Source: a virus. From it: a stretch of 64,000 nt of DNA. The number at the start of each line of letters is the position of its first letter. Position 1 is the first letter of the stretch. Below the pieces are notes generated by a model that worked only from the letters and a program-made list of their open reading frames with translations, was not told where the DNA came from and searched no databases. Below, piece by piece: positions 2,340 through 39,858 of this stretch. The translations under genes and the position numbers were made by a program. Location of the stretch: positions 119,313 through 183,312 of IMG/VR virus record IMGVR_UViG_3300028588_000016, one strand, 5' to 3'.

Positions 2340-2568
2340 TTGATAACTTAACAATAGCGTTATCAAATAGTTGTATCTGTCTGAAAGCATCTATCTCAAA
2401 ATCTTTTATAAAATCGATTACAGTTATTGCTTCCATAATCGGTTCATATCCGTCTAGAGGATGTCCTCTTTGAGCTTTTATAACAAAAGAAGAATAGGCT
2501 TTAATTATTTTTGCTTTGAGCGATTCACGAAGTTTATCCGCAACCGCAGTCTGATCCGTTGTTGCCAT
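2332..2568 (-). CDS. Hypothetical protein (78 aa)
   Basis: Overlaps both neighbours within the structural operon. Confidence 0.6.
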   Translation of the reverse strand: MATTDQTAVADKLRESLKAKIIKAYSSFVIKAQRGHPLDGYEPIMEAITVIDFIKDFEIDAFRQIQLFDNAIVKLSNG

Positions 2569-3289
2569 TGATTTGTTTACAAATTAGACCACATGAATTA
2601 CTAGATTCTATTACTTTTTGAACCTCATTCAAATGACCGTCTTCTTTTAAATAGTTAATAACGTTTAAAGTCATTACTATATAATCTCTTTGTTTTTTAT
2701 AGATATCTCCTTTACCGTTACAAGCTTCTAAACCTTTTGATAAGATTTCTGTTTGTAATTTAAACAAACATTTGTTAAGATAACAAGTACTTATAAATTT
2801 ATAACTGGTTATAGAACCTGTAGTATCATTACCCATCAGTAAAACTAAATCTTTTAATTCAACTACTTCGTTAGCTGAATTATAATAGAAACCTGTTTCT
2901 GGATCGTAGTAATAAGCAGTCTTAGTTATATTTCCAATATTTGCTAAGTAATAAGCTTTGGTAATTACGAAGGCTCTTTTAAAAGTATAGACTCCGTCTT
3001 TAGCTAAAGTATAATATTTAGTTTCAAAGTTATCTGCATAAACTGGTTTAACTTCTGAGGTTGTTAAACTAATTACTTCTTCTAATGGGTTAAGGATTTG
3101 CGTATCTCTATTGTAAGGATTATAGATTACAGTATCAATAAAAACACCGTTTGATAATTTATAATCACCTTCTAAGGTAGGAGTACCGGATTCAATTACG
3201 AATCCGTTAGCTCCACCGAAACCTGTAGTATCTTGTATACTTAATATACAATTACTATTAAAGTTGATATTTATTTTTAATTTAGTCAT
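2534..3289 (-). CDS. Conserved crAss-like structural protein downstream of portal (Cys-rich C-terminus ...SDCGCG)
   Basis: 251 aa, 2 nt downstream of the portal stop. Resemblance to crAss-like post-portal proteins is from recall only. Confidence 0.6.
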   Translation of the reverse strand: MTKLKININFNSNCILSIQDTTGFGGANGFVIESGTPTLEGDYKLSNGVFIDTVIYNPYNRDTQILNPLEEVISLTTSEVKPVYADNFETKYYTLAKDGVYTFKRAFVITKAYYLANIGNITKTAYYYDPETGFYYNSANEVVELKDLVLLMGNDTTGSITSYKFISTCYLNKCLFKLQTEILSKGLEACNGKGDIYKKQRDYIVMTLNVINYLKEDGHLNEVQKVIESSNSCGLICKQINGNNGSDCGCG

Positions 3290-3291
3290 CT

Positions 3292-5544
3292 TTAGTCCAT
3301 TTTAACCTCATTGTTATTTGGGTTATTGTCAAACATTTGCAGTTTCTCTAGTTCAACTTTCTCTTCATCAAGCTTAAGTTTACCATCGTTAAATACTCTA
3401 ACATTATCGTTAGCTTCACTACGTATAGCAAAATCGTTTTTAACTTTAGCTTCTTCAAGATCCAAGTTACGTTTCTTAAATGCTTCAAGTTCTCTAGCAA
3501 TCTTTTGCATTTCTTGTTGCATTTGTTGCTGTTGTTGTTGAGCTTGTTCAAGTTGTTGCTGCAAGTTACCAACAATGTCGTTTTCTTCTTTCTTCTTAGC
3601 TAAACCGTTAAGAATAGATTCTTGCATTTCAGTCATACTTTCGGTAGTAATAGCTTGGAAAACTACTTCTGGATCTACTAGTCCACCTTTAATAAGTTCC
3701 ATACTTAATCCTTCAATCTTTTGCATATCTTTGATAATGTCTCCACTATCTGCAATATGTACATCGTGATCAGTAAAACTAAAGTTCTTAGGATCTACTG
3801 TAAAGATTTTACGTTGTTTATCTCCTAATATAATAGAACCTACGAATCCTTTTCTGTATGAATACTTACATTGATTGATAGCGTCAACTAATAATTCAGC
3901 TGTAATGTTATCCATTAAATGGAAGTAGGATTTAGTAATAATAGCAGATTGTTTTACTCCAACTTCTACGTTAGTTACCGCATCTCTTTGTTCTATTCCA
4001 CCAAGTCTTTCTCTGAAGACACCTGTTATATTTGAACAAGCAGCTTCAGTTTGTTGAATAGCTAAACCTATTGCTTGTATTGCATCACCTTTAACAGTAT
4101 CGTCAAATCCACCGAATATAGTATTAAGGTTAGCTGCACGGCCTTCTTGTGAAGAGTCTAACAAAGCAACACCGTTCTTTTTATAACCTATCCATTTCAT
4201 CAAACGTTCTGCAGGTTCAGTACCTAAGAAAGCTGGTAATTGCGATACGTCCATAAAGTCACCTTGTACACCAGAGTTAGCCATTAAAGTGTCTCTCCAG
4301 AAGTGTAGTAAATCATACTTATCTTGAATAGAAGCCGCAGCTAAAACTAAAGAATAAGTAGTACCTCTAGCACCAGGACAGAATCCATTAACTGATAAGT
4401 AAGCAGCGTTAGGTTTTTCGATAGAACGTATAACGTTTTCTTTCTTACCCATATCACAATAAATATCAGCACCTATACGTACACCCTCATAGATATCAGT
4501 ACGATAACCTTTTCCATTAATACCGTCTTTCATTTCGATTTCAGTATTAGTAGTCCATTCAACTTCGTAAACAGGATATAAATTCTGAGTACTAAAGTCC
4601 CTATCGTATTCAGCAGAATAAGGTATAGTTATATCAACATTTGAAATAAGTCCACCACTTGCACTCCTGATGTAGTAAACTTGTGCGGTATGATCGTAAG
4701 CTACCTCGCTATCTAAAGCATCGATATCTTCTTTCTCCATCTTATGACCATACTTAGAAATTATTTCAGTCTTAGTATACCAATAACGTACAACACTCCT
4801 TGCTCTCTTCTTAACGTAGGGAGAAGAATAGTTATTACTATTTTCTATAAATGTATCAAAAGGATTAAGTATTTCAATCTCTGGAGTTTCTCCTTCATGC
4901 TGTAGAGATACTTTGTAATAACATTGACCTGCCACCAAGATATCTAAGAATAGAATCTTTAGTTTAGTGTATAAATCAACTTCTCTACTTTGTATTAAGT
5001 GAGTAACGATATCTTGAGCAGCTACTTCAAAATCCGATTTAAAGTTTCTACTTAAATCATCCTTTAGTTTACTAATCTCTCTTTCATTTGCTTTATCGAC
5101 AGGAGGTTGTTTAGCTTTCTTCTCTTCTTCTGTTTGTAAAGCGTACCAAAGATTATTCATCATTTGGCTTTTTAATCTTTCTAATTCACCTGCATAGATT
5201 GCTTCCTTACGTTGCTTTTCTATTAAGTTGATAGTCTTTCTATCTTTACAAGTGATTTTCGGTTTAAGTTTGTTCTGTAAATGTTCACCGATTAAAACGT
5301 CAATATGACTCTTAATCAGAGGAATGAATTCTACAGAAGTAGGTGTACCTATACCGAAGTTATCTTCTAAGTGTTTGTATTGATCTTTGTCACGTTTACC
5401 TTCATAGTAGTTATAAGCTTTTCTTAAAGAATCTTTCTCATACACTAATTCAGAAATAGCGGCATCAATACAATCCATAAGGTATTCTGGATCTTCCTTT
5501 TGTTTCTCTGTCAGTAATACTGATCTGTAATTAACAGTGCCCAT
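3292..5544 (-). CDS. Portal protein (crAss-like)
   Basis: 750 aa. N-terminal AYNYYEG...G.GTPTSVEFIPLIKSHIDVL.GE, central ITGVFRERLGGIEQRDAVTNV, C-terminal Q-rich coiled coil. Located one small ORF downstream of TerL. Confidence 0.88.
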   Translation of the reverse strand: MGTVNYRSVLLTEKQKEDPEYLMDCIDAAISELVYEKDSLRKAYNYYEGKRDKDQYKHLEDNFGIGTPTSVEFIPLIKSHIDVLIGEHLQNKLKPKITCKDRKTINLIEKQRKEAIYAGELERLKSQMMNNLWYALQTEEEKKAKQPPVDKANEREISKLKDDLSRNFKSDFEVAAQDIVTHLIQSREVDLYTKLKILFLDILVAGQCYYKVSLQHEGETPEIEILNPFDTFIENSNNYSSPYVKKRARSVVRYWYTKTEIISKYGHKMEKEDIDALDSEVAYDHTAQVYYIRSASGGLISNVDITIPYSAEYDRDFSTQNLYPVYEVEWTTNTEIEMKDGINGKGYRTDIYEGVRIGADIYCDMGKKENVIRSIEKPNAAYLSVNGFCPGARGTTYSLVLAAASIQDKYDLLHFWRDTLMANSGVQGDFMDVSQLPAFLGTEPAERLMKWIGYKKNGVALLDSSQEGRAANLNTIFGGFDDTVKGDAIQAIGLAIQQTEAACSNITGVFRERLGGIEQRDAVTNVEVGVKQSAIITKSYFHLMDNITAELLVDAINQCKYSYRKGFVGSIILGDKQRKIFTVDPKNFSFTDHDVHIADSGDIIKDMQKIEGLSMELIKGGLVDPEVVFQAITTESMTEMQESILNGLAKKKEENDIVGNLQQQLEQAQQQQQQMQQEMQKIARELEAFKKRNLDLEEAKVKNDFAIRSEANDNVRVFNDGKLKLDEEKVELEKLQMFDNNPNNNEVKMD

Positions 5545-20583: not shown

Positions 20584-20584
20584 G

Positions 20585-20626
20585 AAAAGCCCAGCTACTT
20601 GATTGTAGACTGGGCTTTAATTTTTT
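20585..20626. terminator. Bidirectional terminator between convergent genes
   Basis: AAAGCCCAG-CTAC...GTAG-A-CTGGGCTTT flanked by A- and T-runs. Confidence 0.75.
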
Positions 20627-21287
20627 AATCGTCTTCTTTCTTTCCTATGATATGAATAAACTTTTGTTTGTTTACTTTCATTAATGGATTACTATTTATA
20701 ACTTCTGCTTTAACAACAGTCGTTTTTTCCTTTTGTTGGAACCAACGTTTTAAGAAGAAGTCGTATCTTCTAGGTATAAAGGTCTTTATAGTAGAATCAC
20801 TGAATAATAGATATTGTGTATTATAAAATTCTATATCAGATGATATACGATAAGGTGATAAAGTGATAACGTTCTTAATATCCTTGTTAGATAAATCAAC
20901 TACTGTATCAGGTAGCTTAGTTTGTATTTCTTTAGTAAGTTGTGTAGTAACAGCAGTAGTAACGTAACTAGCTTGTCTTAACTTACGAATGTCATAGTTC
21001 TGTTCTTTTATAATCTTAATCAATTCAAGAGTTTGAGAATCAGCTTCTAATTTAAAATCAGTTAAGTTCTGATTAAACATTATAGTCTTAGCGTGTTCCT
21101 GTCCGTAACGATCTTCCCATTTCTTCATTTCTGTTTTAGCAGCAACCTCGTTATTTTTAGTAATGGCGTAAGCTATCTTTGTATTAGCAAGTTCGGTTCT
21201 TGTAATCCATAACATTGCTAGTAATGCACCTATGATAATTATAACGTAAGTCCATGAACTCTTTAATAAACTAGCAATCAAATTCAT
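20625..21287 (-). CDS. Membrane-anchored coiled-coil protein; spanin-like lysis candidate
   Basis: N-terminal TM (WTYVIIIIGALLAMLWI) followed by a coiled coil. Confidence 0.5.
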   Translation of the reverse strand: MNLIASLLKSSWTYVIIIIGALLAMLWITRTELANTKIAYAITKNNEVAAKTEMKKWEDRYGQEHAKTIMFNQNLTDFKLEADSQTLELIKIIKEQNYDIRKLRQASYVTTAVTTQLTKEIQTKLPDTVVDLSNKDIKNVITLSPYRISSDIEFYNTQYLLFSDSTIKTFIPRRYDFFLKRWFQQKEKTTVVKAEVINSNPLMKVNKQKFIHIIGKKEDD

Positions 21288-21415
21288 CTAACCAAGCGTT
21301 ATCAATTACCATCCTACCATCTGCTTTAAATGTAAACGAACCTACCTTTGTGGGATAAGGAATCGTAGCTGTAACCTTACTCTTATTGTAATTAGGTGCA
21401 CGCTTTGTTTTTGTT

Positions 21416-21928
21416 TTACTCTCCTTCTTCATTATTTACTTTGTTAATATTAATTCCATATACCCCATTAGCTACTACAAACATTACCTCACTCTTAACT
21501 AACTTGTTAATCATAGGTTGTATATTTTTAGCAGCTGTCTTTATTGCCTTTGCCCATTTACTAATAAAATACTTAGTAATAGGAAAGCTTCTAGGTTCCT
21601 TTACGGTTTCAAGTAAATGCTCAATTAAAGCATCCTCTTTACCTTTCTGTTTTGCTCTTACCGAGACTTCATCCTCCACCCAATGTTTATACTTCTCTCT
21701 AATGTATTCTATTTGATACCTAACATAATCATCAATATAAAACCATTCGAGTCTGTAATGATAATCTTTTAATTCCCTATGTATCTCTTTCTCTAACTTC
21801 TCATCTCCCTCAATAACATATAAAAGATGGAAGTCTGGGTTATGTGTAGCATACTGTTTCATACGATTAGTAATGTTACTTGTATAACCTACTTTTAAAT
21901 AGTTATTGCTTTCTATGAAGTATATCAT
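21416..21928 (-). CDS. GIY-YIG (T5orf172/MUG113-like) endonuclease with C-terminal HTH-like region
   Basis: MIYFI...LKVGYTSN...RMKQY...LEKEIH...EWF. Confidence 0.75.
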   Translation of the reverse strand: MIYFIESNNYLKVGYTSNITNRMKQYATHNPDFHLLYVIEGDEKLEKEIHRELKDYHYRLEWFYIDDYVRYQIEYIREKYKHWVEDEVSVRAKQKGKEDALIEHLLETVKEPRSFPITKYFISKWAKAIKTAAKNIQPMINKLVKSEVMFVVANGVYGININKVNNEEGE

Positions 21929-23498
21929 TATTGATTAATTTTATCTTTAAATACTTCCAAGGCATACCGCATTAAGTCAAACGGTATTCTAGATAAAAAT
22001 CTTTGCCTACGTGCTTCACAGTTATCGCAACCATCTATTTTAATTTTATCAAATGTAGATACTGTAATATTATCATTGAAGCCGTTCCAACCTATATAAT
22101 AACGCTTGTCTTTATAAATTACGGTGTGAGTCTGATAAGGATGCTCACTTGTAGATCTGGAACTATTTATTTCTACTAGTTCTATATCATTCTTCGAAGC
22201 TTCCATATTCTACTTTAGTATTAGGATTCTCATTTAGTATTGGTTTATTATCTTCAATCTTTAGCCAGCCTTGTGATATAAAGAATTCATAGATAGACTT
22301 TTGTTTTTCAAAGTAGTCTATATCTTCTTGTGTTAAAGCAAACATTATTTTTCTAAGTCTTTATTAAGTGCTACTATTAACTCAATAGGCACACTCTCTA
22401 GTACCATTCTATACTGTGGATCTATAAACGTAAATGAATTATTATGTTCATTATGTCTTACAACAATAGCTCTATTGTGATCTGGCCAACATACATAGTA
22501 ATAACATTTAACAAACTCATCATCTTGGAATTCAGTTAACTTTCTGTATTCTATTTTACGATCAAATAACTTATCAGATATACTTTCTATAGGTTCTGGA
22601 AATGAATCCTCTTCCACTTCTCTAAATAGATCGGCAATAGTATTAGGCTTTTCTAAACGTCTAGATTGTCTCTCTCTTAATTCTCTATGCATATCTGCTA
22701 TTCCTTTACCTATATCTGTTTGTTCTTGAAGTGGGTTCTTAATAAACTGTATACCCTGCTTGATATAATGATCCTTTTGGGATTCTGTGAAGTTCATTCT
22801 TTAATTGTTGTTTAAGTGACGGTGTCATTAGTATATGATTATCTGTTTCTATTTCTGATTCCATGAAAGCGATACCTTTATTGTATGCAGCTAACTCTTC
22901 TTCTATTTGCTTTTTACTTTTTCGTGGCATGTTTTATCTCCTTCAAATAAAGCGAGAGGTCTTCTGTGTACTAGTTCCTCTAATAATATAACAGGTATCT
23001 TAGATGTACGTTTATAATATAATACAGTATTAGTATCAAAATCATAATCTTGTATAAAGAATATATACTCTCCACGCATATCGTGATTAAACATAGCATA
23101 TCTGCTATGACCATATGTAGTTGTATTCTCATACACTGTATAGACAGGAGCGTAGAATTCTATTCGATCTCCTGTAGGTTTAAAGAATTCGTTAGTCTGT
23201 ACATGGCATATTCCGTTGTTTGCTATTTTCATTAGTACTTATCTATATTAGCTAAACAAGTATCTAGATCTTCTGTAATTTGTTTCAATAGTTCATGAGG
23301 AATTTCAAATAAAGAACATGGTGTCATATGTAAATGTAGAGAATTGGTGATTGTGTAGAATATAGTAACCATTCCTCTTTCATTTCTATATGTACTATAA
23401 GTTATTCCCTTGTGTTCATCTTGTCCTATGTGTGCCATCCTTACGAACTTACCATATTCGTTTTGTCCGCTTCCTTGATTTAATAGTTTGAATTTCAT
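21928..23498 (-). other. Run of small hypothetical ORFs (21928-22206, 22345-22797, 22739-22930, 22903-23232, 23232-23498)
   Basis: Co-oriented, tightly packed ORFs at the start of the left arm. Confidence 0.55.
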
Positions 23499-25469: not shown

Positions 25470-26035
25470 GAGTCTGCACTTGATAGGTCAGGTTTATTAA
25501 TTACAGTAATTTTGGGACAGTTAACCAAGCCACATCGCGTGACTTGGTTTTCTTTATTAAACAAACTCAACCAGGAGAGTATAAAATAGTTTGTGATCAG
25601 ACTGGACGAAACATATATTTATGTCAAACTGTAAAACAATATTTAAAATGGTAATGATTCAAGGAGTTCTTATGTCTTTAGAAGACGCGAGAGAGTACGA
25701 TTTCAATTAAACATTTATTAACCCACACAGTTAGAGTAACAGGTTATGCTGACTCTAACTTTAAAATTATTTTAACATGACATACCAAGAAAGAATTGAT
25801 CTAGCTATATCAAAAGTAATAATGTATCAAGCAGATTCAAACTGCATTAGAGTGTTACACAGAACTGAAAGAGGTTTTAATGTAATCACCTTTAGTTATT
25901 CTTGGTGTAACATGGAACTACTAAGAGATGCAAGAAAAGTAAACATAGATGTAAACTTATATACATTCAAACAATATTTAAACAATCTGTTAACACCTGT
26001 ACTATTGTTGGCAGCTTAATCTAAAACCCAACCCA

Positions 26036-26341: not shown

Positions 26342-26548
26342 CCATTAAACAATGTAAGTGGATCCAACTACTTGCATTGTTTAATAAATTCATTCACAAT
26401 GAGAAGAGCAAGACGTATTGGTGATGCACCAATTGACCATAAGAGAGAATTATCTAAGATAGAGATGCAATTAGACGCATTGAGCTTAGTTCGTACACAA
26501 CTTAGAGCTAACTTCCAACGTCAGATGCGTGAGCAAGACAAGATTTAA

Positions 26549-26911
26549 ATGGAGATCTTTAAGACTGCAATGAAGAGTTATACACCTGATACGTGGATAT
26601 CTGATATTGTAGGATTAACAGGTATTGCCAAGACTACGATCTCTAAATTAGTTAAAGGTCACAAGATCTCTGACTTACATTTACTAGAACGTGATGAACT
26701 TGCAAACTATCGTAATCTATCTGATAGAAACGTAGAGATTCTTCTAGCTTTAGAAGCTAAAGGTCTATGTAAATACATGGAAAGTAAACTAAAAGAAAAC
26801 CCTGTTCCAATTATTCACAACGAAGTTAAAGGTTATTTCGATACTCCTGAATGGCAACAAGTATTTGCTAATCAAAGGGAAAGAGAAAGACTAAGAGCAG
26901 AAAATAAATAG
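26549..26911 (+). CDS. Putative HTH DNA-binding protein
   Basis: ISDIVGLTGIAKTTISKLVKG has an XRE-like helix-turn-helix pattern. Confidence 0.5.
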   Translation: MEIFKTAMKSYTPDTWISDIVGLTGIAKTTISKLVKGHKISDLHLLERDELANYRNLSDRNVEILLALEAKGLCKYMESKLKENPVPIIHNEVKGYFDTPEWQQVFANQRERERLRAENK

Positions 26912-26914
26912 CGC

Positions 26915-27690
26915 ATAATCTATCACGATTAGGTCTATTAATAACCGGTTGCGTTGCTGCCATGCCTTTCGTCGCTGTACGTCTGTTAGCGACCGGTTAT
27001 TAATAGGTTTAGGCCCTCAGAGGCGCTCAAGCTAGGCATAGCCCCAAAATCCATTACATGATGTGATCCCATAAAGACACATCGGCTGTCAAACAATCCT
27101 TAGTACTGCAAATATATGCCAGAGGATATGTAATGAGTATGATCGCAAATCATACAGAACCCACAAAGGCCTATCGAAGTCGAACAGATAGGATTGCACC
27201 GACACAAAACTCTATGACAAGAGTTGACGACCAACATATGACGTTGAAAATAACCGGATCACACGTAGTCTATTACGTGCCACAACCACACTCAAACGAA
27301 CAGCCCGTAAAAAGCCGAAAGGCATGTGGGGCTGTCACGGTAGAAGTCCGGTATTAATAACTAGGAGTAGTCGCCAATTAAGGTTGAGCTTATCTAGCCG
27401 TGGAAGTCGGTTTATCATGGAAAGGTAACGTGGCCGCCTTTAATGTGCCCAATTCGAATACAACTTGCGTGGTTAATGCACAGCAAGACGCAGGCGTATT
27501 CGGATACATTTAACCACACCGAAGAACCCTGAGCAAGTTCTGTATTTCAGCCGTCTGAAGTATTAAGTCTCAATTACAACACTAACAGTGCAAACCATTA
27601 CGAATTAACTTCGTTAGGTTGGTCTATTTAAACAGGAAGTATAGAGTCGTTGACCGGCTTCCTGTTTACTTAGGTTTAGGTCTATAAGAT
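26915..27690 (+). ncRNA. Candidate large structured ncRNA (~750 nt), family unassigned
   Basis: Interval is visibly more GC-rich than its flanks and has many hairpins (18-bp 26935-26952/26989-27006; 27052-59/27128-35; 27137-55; 27170-92; GCC-GAAA-GGC 27314-23; 27629-39/27658-68). Confidence 0.55.
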
Positions 27691-27715
27691 GCTCAAACTG
27701 TAAAACCCATTAAAG

Positions 27716-30700
27716 ATGAGAATAGAAATTCATTTAGGATATGCTCTCTATTTAGAGTGTATTCGCAAAGATCTTCAAGATCAAGCATTAGATGTATTAA
27801 TAGCTGGTCCAGATTCAGCATTAAGATGTCTGTTAGCAGATTTCAGAGAGAATAACAATCAAGCATCATTCAGCGAGTTTCATAAGTTCGCAATAGATGC
27901 CGCGATTATTGTCCAAGAATTCTTTTTACCAGAAATGTAATGCAATTGATCAAAATTCAAGGAACATATGTAGATATATTGTCTATAGATGTACCAGAGT
28001 AAGAACCTACAGTTAGCCGGCGATAACATCAATGGCTACTGTTTAAAATTAAAACAATGGCACAAGAAACTGTAACAATAGAAGATAAAGACTACTTCAT
28101 TGAGTGTAGAGATACAAAGATTGGTGATGTAGTGTATGATAAAAATAGTAAAACTACTTACGTAGCTAGTATATCAGATGCTGATGATCTAAATTGGATC
28201 GTAGTAGAACAAATCAATCACTCAACTATTTAGTCAATGAAATACTTAATACTTATACTCATCTTATCTACTTTAAGTTGTGGAGATGTAACAATAGCAA
28301 AACAAGTAACTAAAATAGAAAGATACAACAAAAAGCTTTCTTATTATTGGTATAATTACAGTAATGATCGTGTACTAGACACAAACAATCGTTATAAGAT
28401 AGGTGATACTGTAAACTTAGTAGAATACTAACACAATGGAGATAGAAATCAACGAAGAAAACCTAAACTTACTACTCAATCAAATAAGAAAACATCTGAA
28501 TGATAACTCTATGGAGTTTATACTTCTTGGAAAAGATGTAACGTTCTTATCGGTAATGGACAAGATAAAGAAAGATGATCCTGGTCATCCTATCGAAGTC
28601 TATCTATTAGCGAGTCGGTATATTAGTGATATCGTAGATGACTTCTTTAAACCGTAAACAATTTAAAAACCCATAAAACCCAAAACAATGAATTCAACTC
28701 AAATCACACTAGGATCATTCAGAATGAAATCAGTGGCAAACAAAACAGTTACAAGAGTAGTAAATGCTGAACTAAATGAGTCAGGCATGTTCTCTTTCAG
28801 TAAAGAAATGTTAAAGCACATTGGTCAAGGTATTCACCTTGTTAACCTAAAGAGTAAAGTATCTGATCCACAAGTATTATTGTCTTTATTAGGCTTAATA
28901 ACTGAAGCTTTATACGCAGAAGACGCTGATCTTGAGTTCGCTCAGAGAGAATTTACTCGTGAAGAAATTCACTTCATCCGCAAAGCTATCTTAGCTAAGC
29001 TTGAACATTGCGAGAAACAAAAACAAGTTGAAGATGCTGATGAGAATACCACAGCGAAAACATTCAACGAAAACTCATACATCAATATGAAGTTACTTCT
29101 TATTGACTTAGGTGAGTGGTTATCTGTTTCTATTTAAACTTAATCATTAACTAAACCTAGATTGGGCGGACGTCGCTGTTTCGCCCTTTCTTAAACTTAA
29201 CACAATGAAGAAGATAATAGCAATAGAAACTTGGGGAGGGACCGCAGGTGGATATAAGGTAGAGTTAAACCTAGAATTAACTAAAGACAGAGAATTAACG
29301 CAAGATGAAGTGTATTTTGCTCATACCAAAGTGCAAGAAATCATGGCGCACATAGACACCAACACGATTAAAACATCTGTTGAGTTTATTAAAAATACAG
29401 CATCTGAACGTGAGCAACTGCTCAACTGTTTCGGTGATCATAAGATCTATGCCAAAGAAATACCATCAGAATATGGTAATCTTGAACCATGGTTCTTAGT
29501 CACAACGCCTAAAGGTGTTATTAAGATTGGATGGCGTAAGCGTGTGATTAATATTGATTGGTCAGACTCTGATATTAAGTTCAAAACCGATGCAGAAGCT
29601 GCTATAGCCATAGAGATAGAAGATCTTCACCATACACACGGTAGAGATTACGTTCACGCTTATGGTTACGCAAAAGCAACTAAATACATTCAACGCTTAC
29701 TAAACGAAGAATAAATGCATTACGTACAGATAACAGACGAACAAGATATCAACTTCACTACTAATCTACCTATCATGCCTGAAATAGGACATCATGTAGT
29801 AATAGACAATGAGTCACGTGAAGTATTAGAAGTTAGACATTTTATTAAACTTGATGGAGTGAGGACAACCTTCTTGAATACACAAATATTAATTAATAGT
29901 ACTTTCCACACATTACACAATGGACGCTAAAGAACCTTTATACTTAAATTCTTAGTTATACACGGTGGTGCTTGGATAAGACTATCGTGTACTTTTAAAC
30001 TAAAACAAATGAACAAGATACAAATCATCATCGCTTTTTATAGAAGTATGAAAACGTTTAGTAAACCTTTCAGTAAAGTAAACAATAATCATTCGGGTAT
30101 GTGTAATTTCTTTTATACCATGTATGCCAAGAGACAACTAAACGACGATAAAGCGCTAGAAAATCTTAGAATACTTAGAGGGATACTTGAACCAATGTAT
30201 TTGAGTGAGTTCGAAGAAGGTAGATTACCTAGTTCAAATCAAGTGTATTGGTACTCTGTAAGTGAGTTAGGTAATAAACAAAGAGTTAAGCTTTTAAAGA
30301 AAGCCATCTACAAGACAATTAAATCCATATTCGTATGAAAAGATTAACAACAATTCTATTACTAATAGGTGCATTTATTTGGTCTGTTGTGATAATTACA
30401 AACCCTCTTACAAGCTTAGCAATTTGTTTGTTTTGCTTAATAGCAGTAGCAATATTAGGAGGTTCTTTCTCCCTTTTCGGTAGTAGAAAAGCCTTATCAA
30501 GAGACATATACGTAAGAAGATGAGAGCAGAATTAAAATTTACTGTATTAACAGCTAAATCAAACATACAACAATTTATGCAAGCTGCAGATGTATTCTCA
30601 CCTCATAAAGTTTTGGTAGCAATACAAACAATGACTTTAACTGTTGAGTGGCCTCTCATAGATGCCGAATACATAGCTAAATGTCAAGATAGTCTTAAAC

Positions 30701-39465: not shown

Positions 39466-39821
39466 GGGCGCGTTCTTGGTACTTGAGCGGGTAAGAACTA
39501 AAAGAGAAGCATGTAGTGCGTTGTTTGTGTGCACTTAAAAGAAGCATTCACATTTTTAACTGGCACTCCGGTGTACAGAATGGCTGCCTAGTCTCTAGGA
39601 GACGTAGTCATTCGCCCAGAAATGGGTTCGCGATCCATGACACTTGGGATCACATACTCGTGTTTAGACTTTGGCTGCAGTTGTGAGACATCTGAACTGC
39701 AGATAGTTGTCTGTTTACAACAGAATAGGCCGTTCCTTATAGCCAATAAATGTAGGATAAACATGTAATGAAGGCTTTTACTATTTACAACGTGACGAGG
39801 GTTCGACTCCCTCCGCGTCCA
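39466..39821 (+). ncRNA. ssrA: tmRNA (transfer-messenger RNA), tag (A)GTPVYRMAA* at 39562-39591
   Basis: Acceptor GGGCGCG/CGCGTCC-A with G3:U70; T-arm GAGGG-TTCGACT-CCCTC; AAGCATGTAG segment; TTTTAACT before the resume codon GGC; tag ends ...MAA-TAG; 356 nt. Confidence 0.92.
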
Positions 39822-39858
39822 CTATGCACATGGTGTGCATCAATTAAATTAAATTACG

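Follow-up and report, generated by a model that had tools for sequence, protein, structure and literature searches.

The gene-free stretch at 26912-27715 is a composite of three parts, in which two copies of a three-hairpin RNA element, module A (26910-27035) and module B (27587-27701), bracket a core of 551 nt (27036-27586). This architecture is secure, and it replaces the single structured unit of ~750 nt proposed in the original prediction, as the two ends of the interval are separate copies of a conserved element. The element is the solid result of our analysis: it constitutes an RNA motif that is widespread among crAss-like phages of the environment and the gut, covaries strongly and has no entry in Rfam 15. 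The core, which we found in this phage only, appears from its sequence to be a lineage-specific candidate RNA represented by a single sequence. Our best explanation, which we hold tentatively and at somewhat less than an even chance, is that the core is a structured non-coding cargo RNA, specific to this lineage, within an early-gene expression cassette. If the core is expressed as a discrete RNA, this would be a rare phage cassette that carries a large non-coding RNA as its cargo and not a protein.

Genome context of the interval

The window, by which we mean the whole analysed stretch of 64 kb, comprises bases 119313-183312 of a 183,312-bp virus record that is rated complete and has a GC content of 35%. 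Judged by sequence comparison, the interval belongs to the genome of a large phage of the crAss-like type. The portal protein of this phage (window 3292-5544, - strand) shows ~40% identity to the portals of MT835470 and MT835539 and ~22% identity to annotated crAss-family portals. MT835470 and MT835539, two human-gut phage records without annotation, are the nearest genomes; what they have in common with the window phage is the structural arm only. None of the early-arm proteins of the window phage match either record and few match relatives in IMG/VR; the early arm of this phage group appears to turn over quickly. A second assembly of the same phage (ENA contig, 183,315 nt) is identical across the interval. 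The locus lies at 11-19 kb of this contig and at ~146 kb of the IMG/VR record; the two assemblies are circularly permuted relative to each other, which fits a complete genome with either circular permutation or terminal redundancy.

Several known structured RNAs are encoded in the window, where Rfam models identify 23 tRNAs, a tmRNA (39466-39824) and a RAGATH-1 hammerhead ribozyme (25564-25630, + strand). The ribozyme scores 60.7 bits, above the gathering score, and sits 1.3 kb upstream of the interval in the same early arm; early transcripts of the window phage are therefore probably processed by ribozymes. A tmRNA is also found in a distant relative (L155 4510-4886, contig G003), ~2 kb downstream of an element copy, and phage-borne tmRNA seems to be recurrent in this phage group.

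The interval is located between two ORFs of the + strand (26549-26911 and 27716-27940). As originally predicted, it is long, GC-enriched and devoid of genes: its GC content is 41-48% in comparison with ~33% in both flanks, and 43.9% overall in comparison with ~35% for the genome, and no ORF inside is longer than 74 aa. Since stop codons are commonly reassigned in crAss-like phages, the interval was retranslated with altered codes (TAG=Q, TGA=W and TAA=Q, each tried in turn), none of which opened a frame. The other GC-rich intergenic stretches of the 183-kb genome are tRNA loci only, according to a crude gene map in which a spurious ORF masked the tmRNA locus.

The gene directly upstream (26399-26911, + strand) is an orphan. 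It had been predicted to encode a helix-turn-helix protein; its product has no helix-turn-helix match and no other family match in Pfam or PHROG, and no relatives were found in IMG/VR or among 5.8 billion proteins. The gene reads as 120 aa from 26549 in the window record and as a single ORF of 170 aa in the second assembly. Position 26546 is a T in the window record (TAA stop) versus a G in the otherwise identical ENA assembly (GAA); this difference could be a true nonsense variant, a suppressed stop or a sequencing error. The early gene downstream (27716-27940, + strand, 74 aa) is served by module B and displays phage-typical codon usage; its protein has no relatives in IMG/VR.

The three-hairpin element and its distribution

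The modules were identified with a covariance model, R1, which was built from 33 foreign copies with the window's own copies left out. R1 returns two matches only in the 64-kb window, namely module A with 33.7 bits (E 5e-5) and module B with 53.1 bits (E 4e-9), both on the + strand. Both matches span model positions 1-71, and P1, P2 and P3 all pair in both modules in the R1 alignment. A search of the whole genome, in which 150 of 194 candidates were scored at the first-look stage and the 119 kb outside the window were covered less thoroughly, returned only module B. In module A, P1 is formed by 26916-26920 and 26927-26931, while P2 is a long hairpin (~26931-26952 with 26989-27012) with G.U pairs at its base. 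P3 of this module (27007-27015 with 27022-27032) is preserved via a double change from U-A to C-G; part of the invariant P3 sequence is lost and the module scores lower than B, and it might be a decaying copy. Module B is canonical, with a mini-hairpin inserted in P1 (~27593-27596 with 27617-27620), followed by P2 (27621-27639 with 27658-27676) and P3 (27674-27682 with 27688-27698); the ATG of the next gene is found 17 nt past P3.

Both ends of the interval display a long hairpin, which at A corresponds to inverted repeat I1, together with two common decamers. A role of the decamers as a genome-wide promoter or as a target-site duplication was rejected, since in the intergenic DNA of this genome they occur at A and B only. 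The similarity between A and B extends past the modules through an A-rich leader up to the ATG. At A, this leader ends in the mini-frame ATG ATG TGA (27058-27066, + strand), which has only two sense codons, begins 25 nt past P3 and is followed by the non-coding core.

A 15-nt word from the 3' end of the interval, when searched against IMG/VR, yielded mostly chance matches and four contigs alike over ~30-36 nt; further copies were recovered with longer degenerate words. More than 50 further copies of the element are present in related big crAss-like phage contigs. There are 10 matches in IMG/VR viral contigs and 61 in metagenome contigs, ~53 of which are true, and 185,579 bacterial and archaeal species genomes contain two matches, both on AT-rich contigs. 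The element appears to be essentially absent from bacterial genomes. It belongs to no family of Rfam 15, and in the literature we found no description of it, nor of the non-coding regions of crAss-like phages.

The element is ~65-140 nt long, is present in 1-3 copies per genome and consists of a short invariant 5' motif followed by P1, P2 and P3. P1 and P2 covary across copies; P2 has a conserved base with three G.U pairs and a distal part that ranges from 4 to >60 nt. P3 is almost invariant, and its rare variable sites fall in the loop, the bulge or a G.U/G-C pair. In an alignment of 52 copies, which leans toward the structure because it was fitted to the model, 98.6% of the cells are paired versus 80.1% in shuffles, and 160 double-sided changes are observed versus 47.7 in shuffles. 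Sliding the partners by 1-3 columns as a control leaves 29-48% paired, and the same compensatory changes are already visible in an alignment made with MAFFT only. Covariation is strong for the element that forms the two ends, as judged from its copies in other phages, whereas no homologues of the core were found in which it could be seen.

Because G.U pairs are conserved at the base of P2, the structure can be assigned to the + (gene-sense) strand. These pairs also bear on the question of whether the palindromes of the interval act as protein sites in double-stranded DNA, for instance in a replication origin, in a packaging site or as a cluster of operators. Palindromes with perfect Watson-Crick pairing do not distinguish between the strands, and a conserved element in one or few copies per genome would suit such a site; the G.U pairs of the flanking element and a P2 of such variable length, however, fit RNA and not a fixed spacing in DNA. 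The five palindromes of the core have no common sequence, and hence no common operator, and the region is GC-rich instead of AT-rich. No strand switch occurs at the interval, as the switch lies at ~18.1-18.9 kb of the window. We consider such an element acting at the DNA level to be highly unlikely.

In ~50 related phage contigs the element is intergenic, and a start codon usually follows 11-20 nt past P3, which is closer than the 25 nt seen at module A. The proteins encoded downstream are small and mutually unrelated, with no homology to one another, and many foreign copies are found directly after a hairpin with a T-run. In one relative, two copies separated by 2.6 kb each precede protein genes, and together they flank four genes. 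Cargo other than a protein gene is also seen: in three near-identical contigs (L192, L223 and L230) a tRNA-like sequence with a canonical T-arm motif takes the place of the protein gene ~60-140 nt after the element, and in two contigs the element is followed by an ORF-poor stretch of 650-840 nt that contains a hatchet ribozyme.

Several carriers of the element are related to the window phage. One of them, a 73-kb IMG/VR contig (G006), encodes a probable large terminase that is 45% identical to the 707-aa protein of the window, and its element copy is syntenic in the early arm. This terminase homologue (G006 2529-4550, - strand) is interrupted by six in-frame TGA codons, which suggests that TGA is recoded in late genes. 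A group I intron (L151 15981-16276, 84 bits) is located in the early arm of the same phage.

Structure, coding potential and origin of the core

The core (27036-27586, 43.9% GC) contains no convincing ORF, and we assign it to the + strand on the basis of the flanking modules, the orientation of the genes and its lower folding-energy z-score on that strand. It includes an array of five perfect local hairpins (27060-27279, + strand), located at 27060-27083, 27137-27155, 27170-27192, 27208-27225 and 27262-27279, with A/C-rich linkers between them and pair probabilities of at least 0.9. Counting as perfect any hairpin with a stem of at least 6 and a loop of 3-12, 500 dinucleotide shuffles of the core contain 0.93 +/- 0.91 and none of the 500 reaches five, while coding windows contain 0-3 each. 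Nowhere else in the 183-kb genome do five perfect hairpins fall within 250 nt as they do in the region 26964-27289. The second-densest cluster of the genome, with four per 250 nt, is found in windows at 20589-20990; on the + strand, which was the strand examined, 20584-22686 of the window forms a stretch of 2.1 kb without a long ORF. Two further structures of the core lie downstream of the array, namely a hairpin around a GAAA-tetraloop mini-hairpin (27301-27334, + strand) and a nine-bp helix in which a 4-bp helix is nested (27453-27504, + strand); one U.G pair of the latter would be a mismatch on the other strand.

The hairpins listed in the original prediction do exist, and its claim of dense RNA structure stands as far as the covarying element at both ends and the hairpin excess of the core are concerned. 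It does not extend to folding energy, which is unexceptional. The z-score of the core is -1.84 on the + strand and -0.91 on the - strand, compared to -1.74 for the tmRNA of the phage and a mean of -0.98 (sd 1.0, minimum -2.98) for twelve coding windows; local windows of 150 nt are likewise ordinary. A lower value (z = -2.97, from 20 shuffles) is obtained for the whole 784 nt, a value to which the long P2 stems of the modules contribute much.

This value is one of the arguments for regarding the whole ~790 nt, twin hairpins included, as one giant ornate RNA and a new class comparable to GOLLD (RF01998) and ROOL (RF03087), as had been suggested originally. The likeness comprises a length of 550-800 nt, non-coding character, GC enrichment and a tRNA-rich phage genome, to which the high hairpin density may be added. 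The families GOLLD and ROOL, however, have many covarying members, whereas the proposed new class rests on a single sequence whose core has no homologue in the collections searched, and no second example was found. The end hairpins are autonomous in other phages, where they stand alone before ordinary genes as parts of a separate element, and without their P2 stems most of the extra stability disappears. A search of 26700-27900 with Rfam 15, at the gathering score and at E up to 10, gave no match to GOLLD, ROOL, OLE, RNase P or group I/II introns; at E up to 10 this search, together with a sub-search of 211 nt, returned noise only (AniS, rliB, mcrA and a miRNA). We judge one giant RNA to be very improbable, and this negative result removes a tempting, unsupported assignment to the GOLLD/ROOL type. 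Two RNase P-like strings noticed by eye were dropped, as they are in the wrong order and match no model.

The longest ORF within the core (27133-27357, + strand, 74 aa) had been named as the product that could take the place of an RNA, in which case the remainder of the interval would serve as untranslated leader and trailer. It begins with an ATG that has a purine-rich stretch 6 nt upstream, and it matches Pfam DUF2470 with an E of 0.01, which is below the cut-off. Its codon score of -0.14 per codon, however, contrasts with +0.19 to +0.58 in all 13 neighbouring genes, and its GC3 of 0.42 with 0.21-0.36. A word-indexed search of 5.8 billion proteins returned the self-match only, and the matches of an exhaustive HMMER search with the 96-aa open frame are tandem-repeat proteins, in which weak matches to differing parts of the query are summed; these were discarded as artefacts. 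The ORF is absent from the genes recorded on the second assembly, and its start lies 100 nt past P3 of module A and not at the 11-20 nt seen elsewhere. Due to its codon usage and lack of true homologues we judge the ORF to be non-coding, and a functional small protein gene is accordingly a most doubtful explanation of the interval.

No homologue of the core was found in the phage collection. Searches with blastn and nhmmer against eight related records and 70 metagenome or viral loci produced matches to the modules only, and three exact words of the core gave no match in IMG/VR, as did a search of the plasmid collection. A 12-nt identity and two shorter common strings link the core to the hatchets of relatives; the 12-nt string lies in the hairpin at 27301-27334 and a second, degenerate copy at 27376-27412. 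The Rfam hatchet model RF02678, which detects the hatchets of relatives at 51-83 bits, found no match in a sub-search of 211 nt (27230-27440) at E up to 10, nor did a model of six related hatchets (R2) find one in the core with filters off. A hatchet in the core was rejected on these grounds, and we take the common strings to reflect chance or at most a relic.

The restriction of the core to one phage is also the first argument for the main rival to our reading, a decayed or junk cassette, which we regard as unlikely though to be taken seriously. Recombination between copies of the element would have captured or duplicated DNA with a dead gene, or DNA that was never functional; the core would then be passively transcribed, its GC content foreign and its hairpins leftovers. 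The mini-frame ATG ATG TGA 25 nt past P3 of module A resembles the start of a dead gene, A is the more diverged of the two modules, the folding energy of the core is ordinary and early arms in this phage group show rapid turnover. A dead gene in a phage of 35% GC should, however, drift to AT, while the core is the most GC-rich intergenic stretch outside tRNA loci. The excess of perfect hairpins is significant and the maximum of the genome, and no residual protein similarity is found in any frame. Moreover, the compensatory change that keeps P3 of module A argues for continued selection.

The reading of the core as a cargo RNA draws on the same observations. No code opens the core, and tRNA loci are the only other intergenic stretches to show such a GC enrichment (with the tmRNA locus masked). 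The hairpin cluster is the maximum of the genome, the + strand folds better than the - strand and the 74-aa ORF looks non-coding. In addition, module A has retained its structure and the core occupies a position within an expression cassette. This reading is weakened by the lack of a homologue, the two assemblies being identical across the core, by a z-score that remains within the range of coding windows and by the fast turnover of the early arm in relatives. In relatives, neither of the two long ORF-poor stretches downstream of the element is rich in GC or dense in hairpins, and no class of such cargos is therefore evident.

We propose that a duplication of the element, which included the leader up to the start codon, created an extra cassette with a non-protein cargo. 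This cargo would be a GC-enriched, hairpin-dense RNA transcribed from the + strand, with the long P2 of module B as its downstream boundary. It might act as a decoy or sponge for a protein, or simply persist as a stable early RNA.

Possible roles of the element and comparison with known systems

From the scans of the collections and the positions of start codons after P3, we infer that the element is a generic early-gene leader or a cassette boundary. Its role may be that of a processing site, a message stabiliser, an antiterminator, a translation platform or a ribozyme. A host-type promoter spanning P2 was rejected, as the length of P2 varies from 4 to >60 nt. A more specific proposal, which we consider improbable, is that the element is a new RNA-processing element, e.g., a new class of self-cleaving ribozyme or a defined nuclease site. 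Its two copies would then excise the 551-nt core as a discrete, stable and possibly circularisable early RNA that could serve as a decoy for an RNA-binding or defence protein of the host. To our knowledge, Bacteroidota and their phages do not use initiation led by a Shine-Dalgarno sequence, and early gene expression in them is poorly understood. A conserved leader would thus offer a handle on transcript processing, stability or the start of translation in a very abundant phage group.

By type, the three-hairpin element ranks among the intergenic regulatory cassettes or structured leaders of phages, and several known systems can be set beside it. The put RNAs of phage HK022 are small, multi-hairpin RNAs that act in cis in antitermination. 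The element resembles them in its small multi-hairpin build, its presence once or twice per genome in early units and the covariation of its stems around fixed nucleotides. There is, however, no homology to them in sequence or structure, and many copies of the element are preceded directly by a terminator-like hairpin and followed closely by a start codon.

Among described systems, the nearest analogue is the PeSL (promoter-early stem-loop), a promoter-terminator cassette that flanks shuffled genes in T4-type phages (PMC2839356, PMC4122927). Both are short, conserved and composite intergenic motifs with a stem-loop, which occur as direct copies around small, fast-changing early genes. Both also lie in a hyperplastic region of the genome and are plausibly points of recombination for the gain and loss of cassettes; in the window phage, the direct copies A and B bracket a core that is absent from all relatives compared. 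The two motifs are nevertheless unrelated in sequence. Unlike the PeSL, the element has three hairpins, the third of them invariant and set off from the start codon by a fixed distance, it is limited to 1-3 copies per genome and no sigma-70-type promoter is evident inside it. The setting differs as well, as it consists here of Bacteroidota and crAss-like phages, and the cargo of the cassette is non-coding.

A further likeness concerns self-cleaving ribozymes, i.e., RAGATH, hatchet and hammerhead RNAs. The element matches no Rfam model and is distinct from them in this respect; it does combine, as they do, covarying stems with invariant nucleotides in junctions and hairpins, and it neighbours such ribozymes, with RAGATH-1 upstream in the window phage and hatchets downstream in several relatives. 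Hatchets recognised by RF02678 at the scores given above are located in related contigs at L189 1329-1402, L222 10773-10847 (- strand) and L194 8298-8462, as well as in L178, L204, L210 and L233. In L178, L189, L204, L210, L222 and L233 the hatchet precedes a conserved gene of ~375 aa by ~90 nt and follows the element at a distance of 0.75-1.5 kb.
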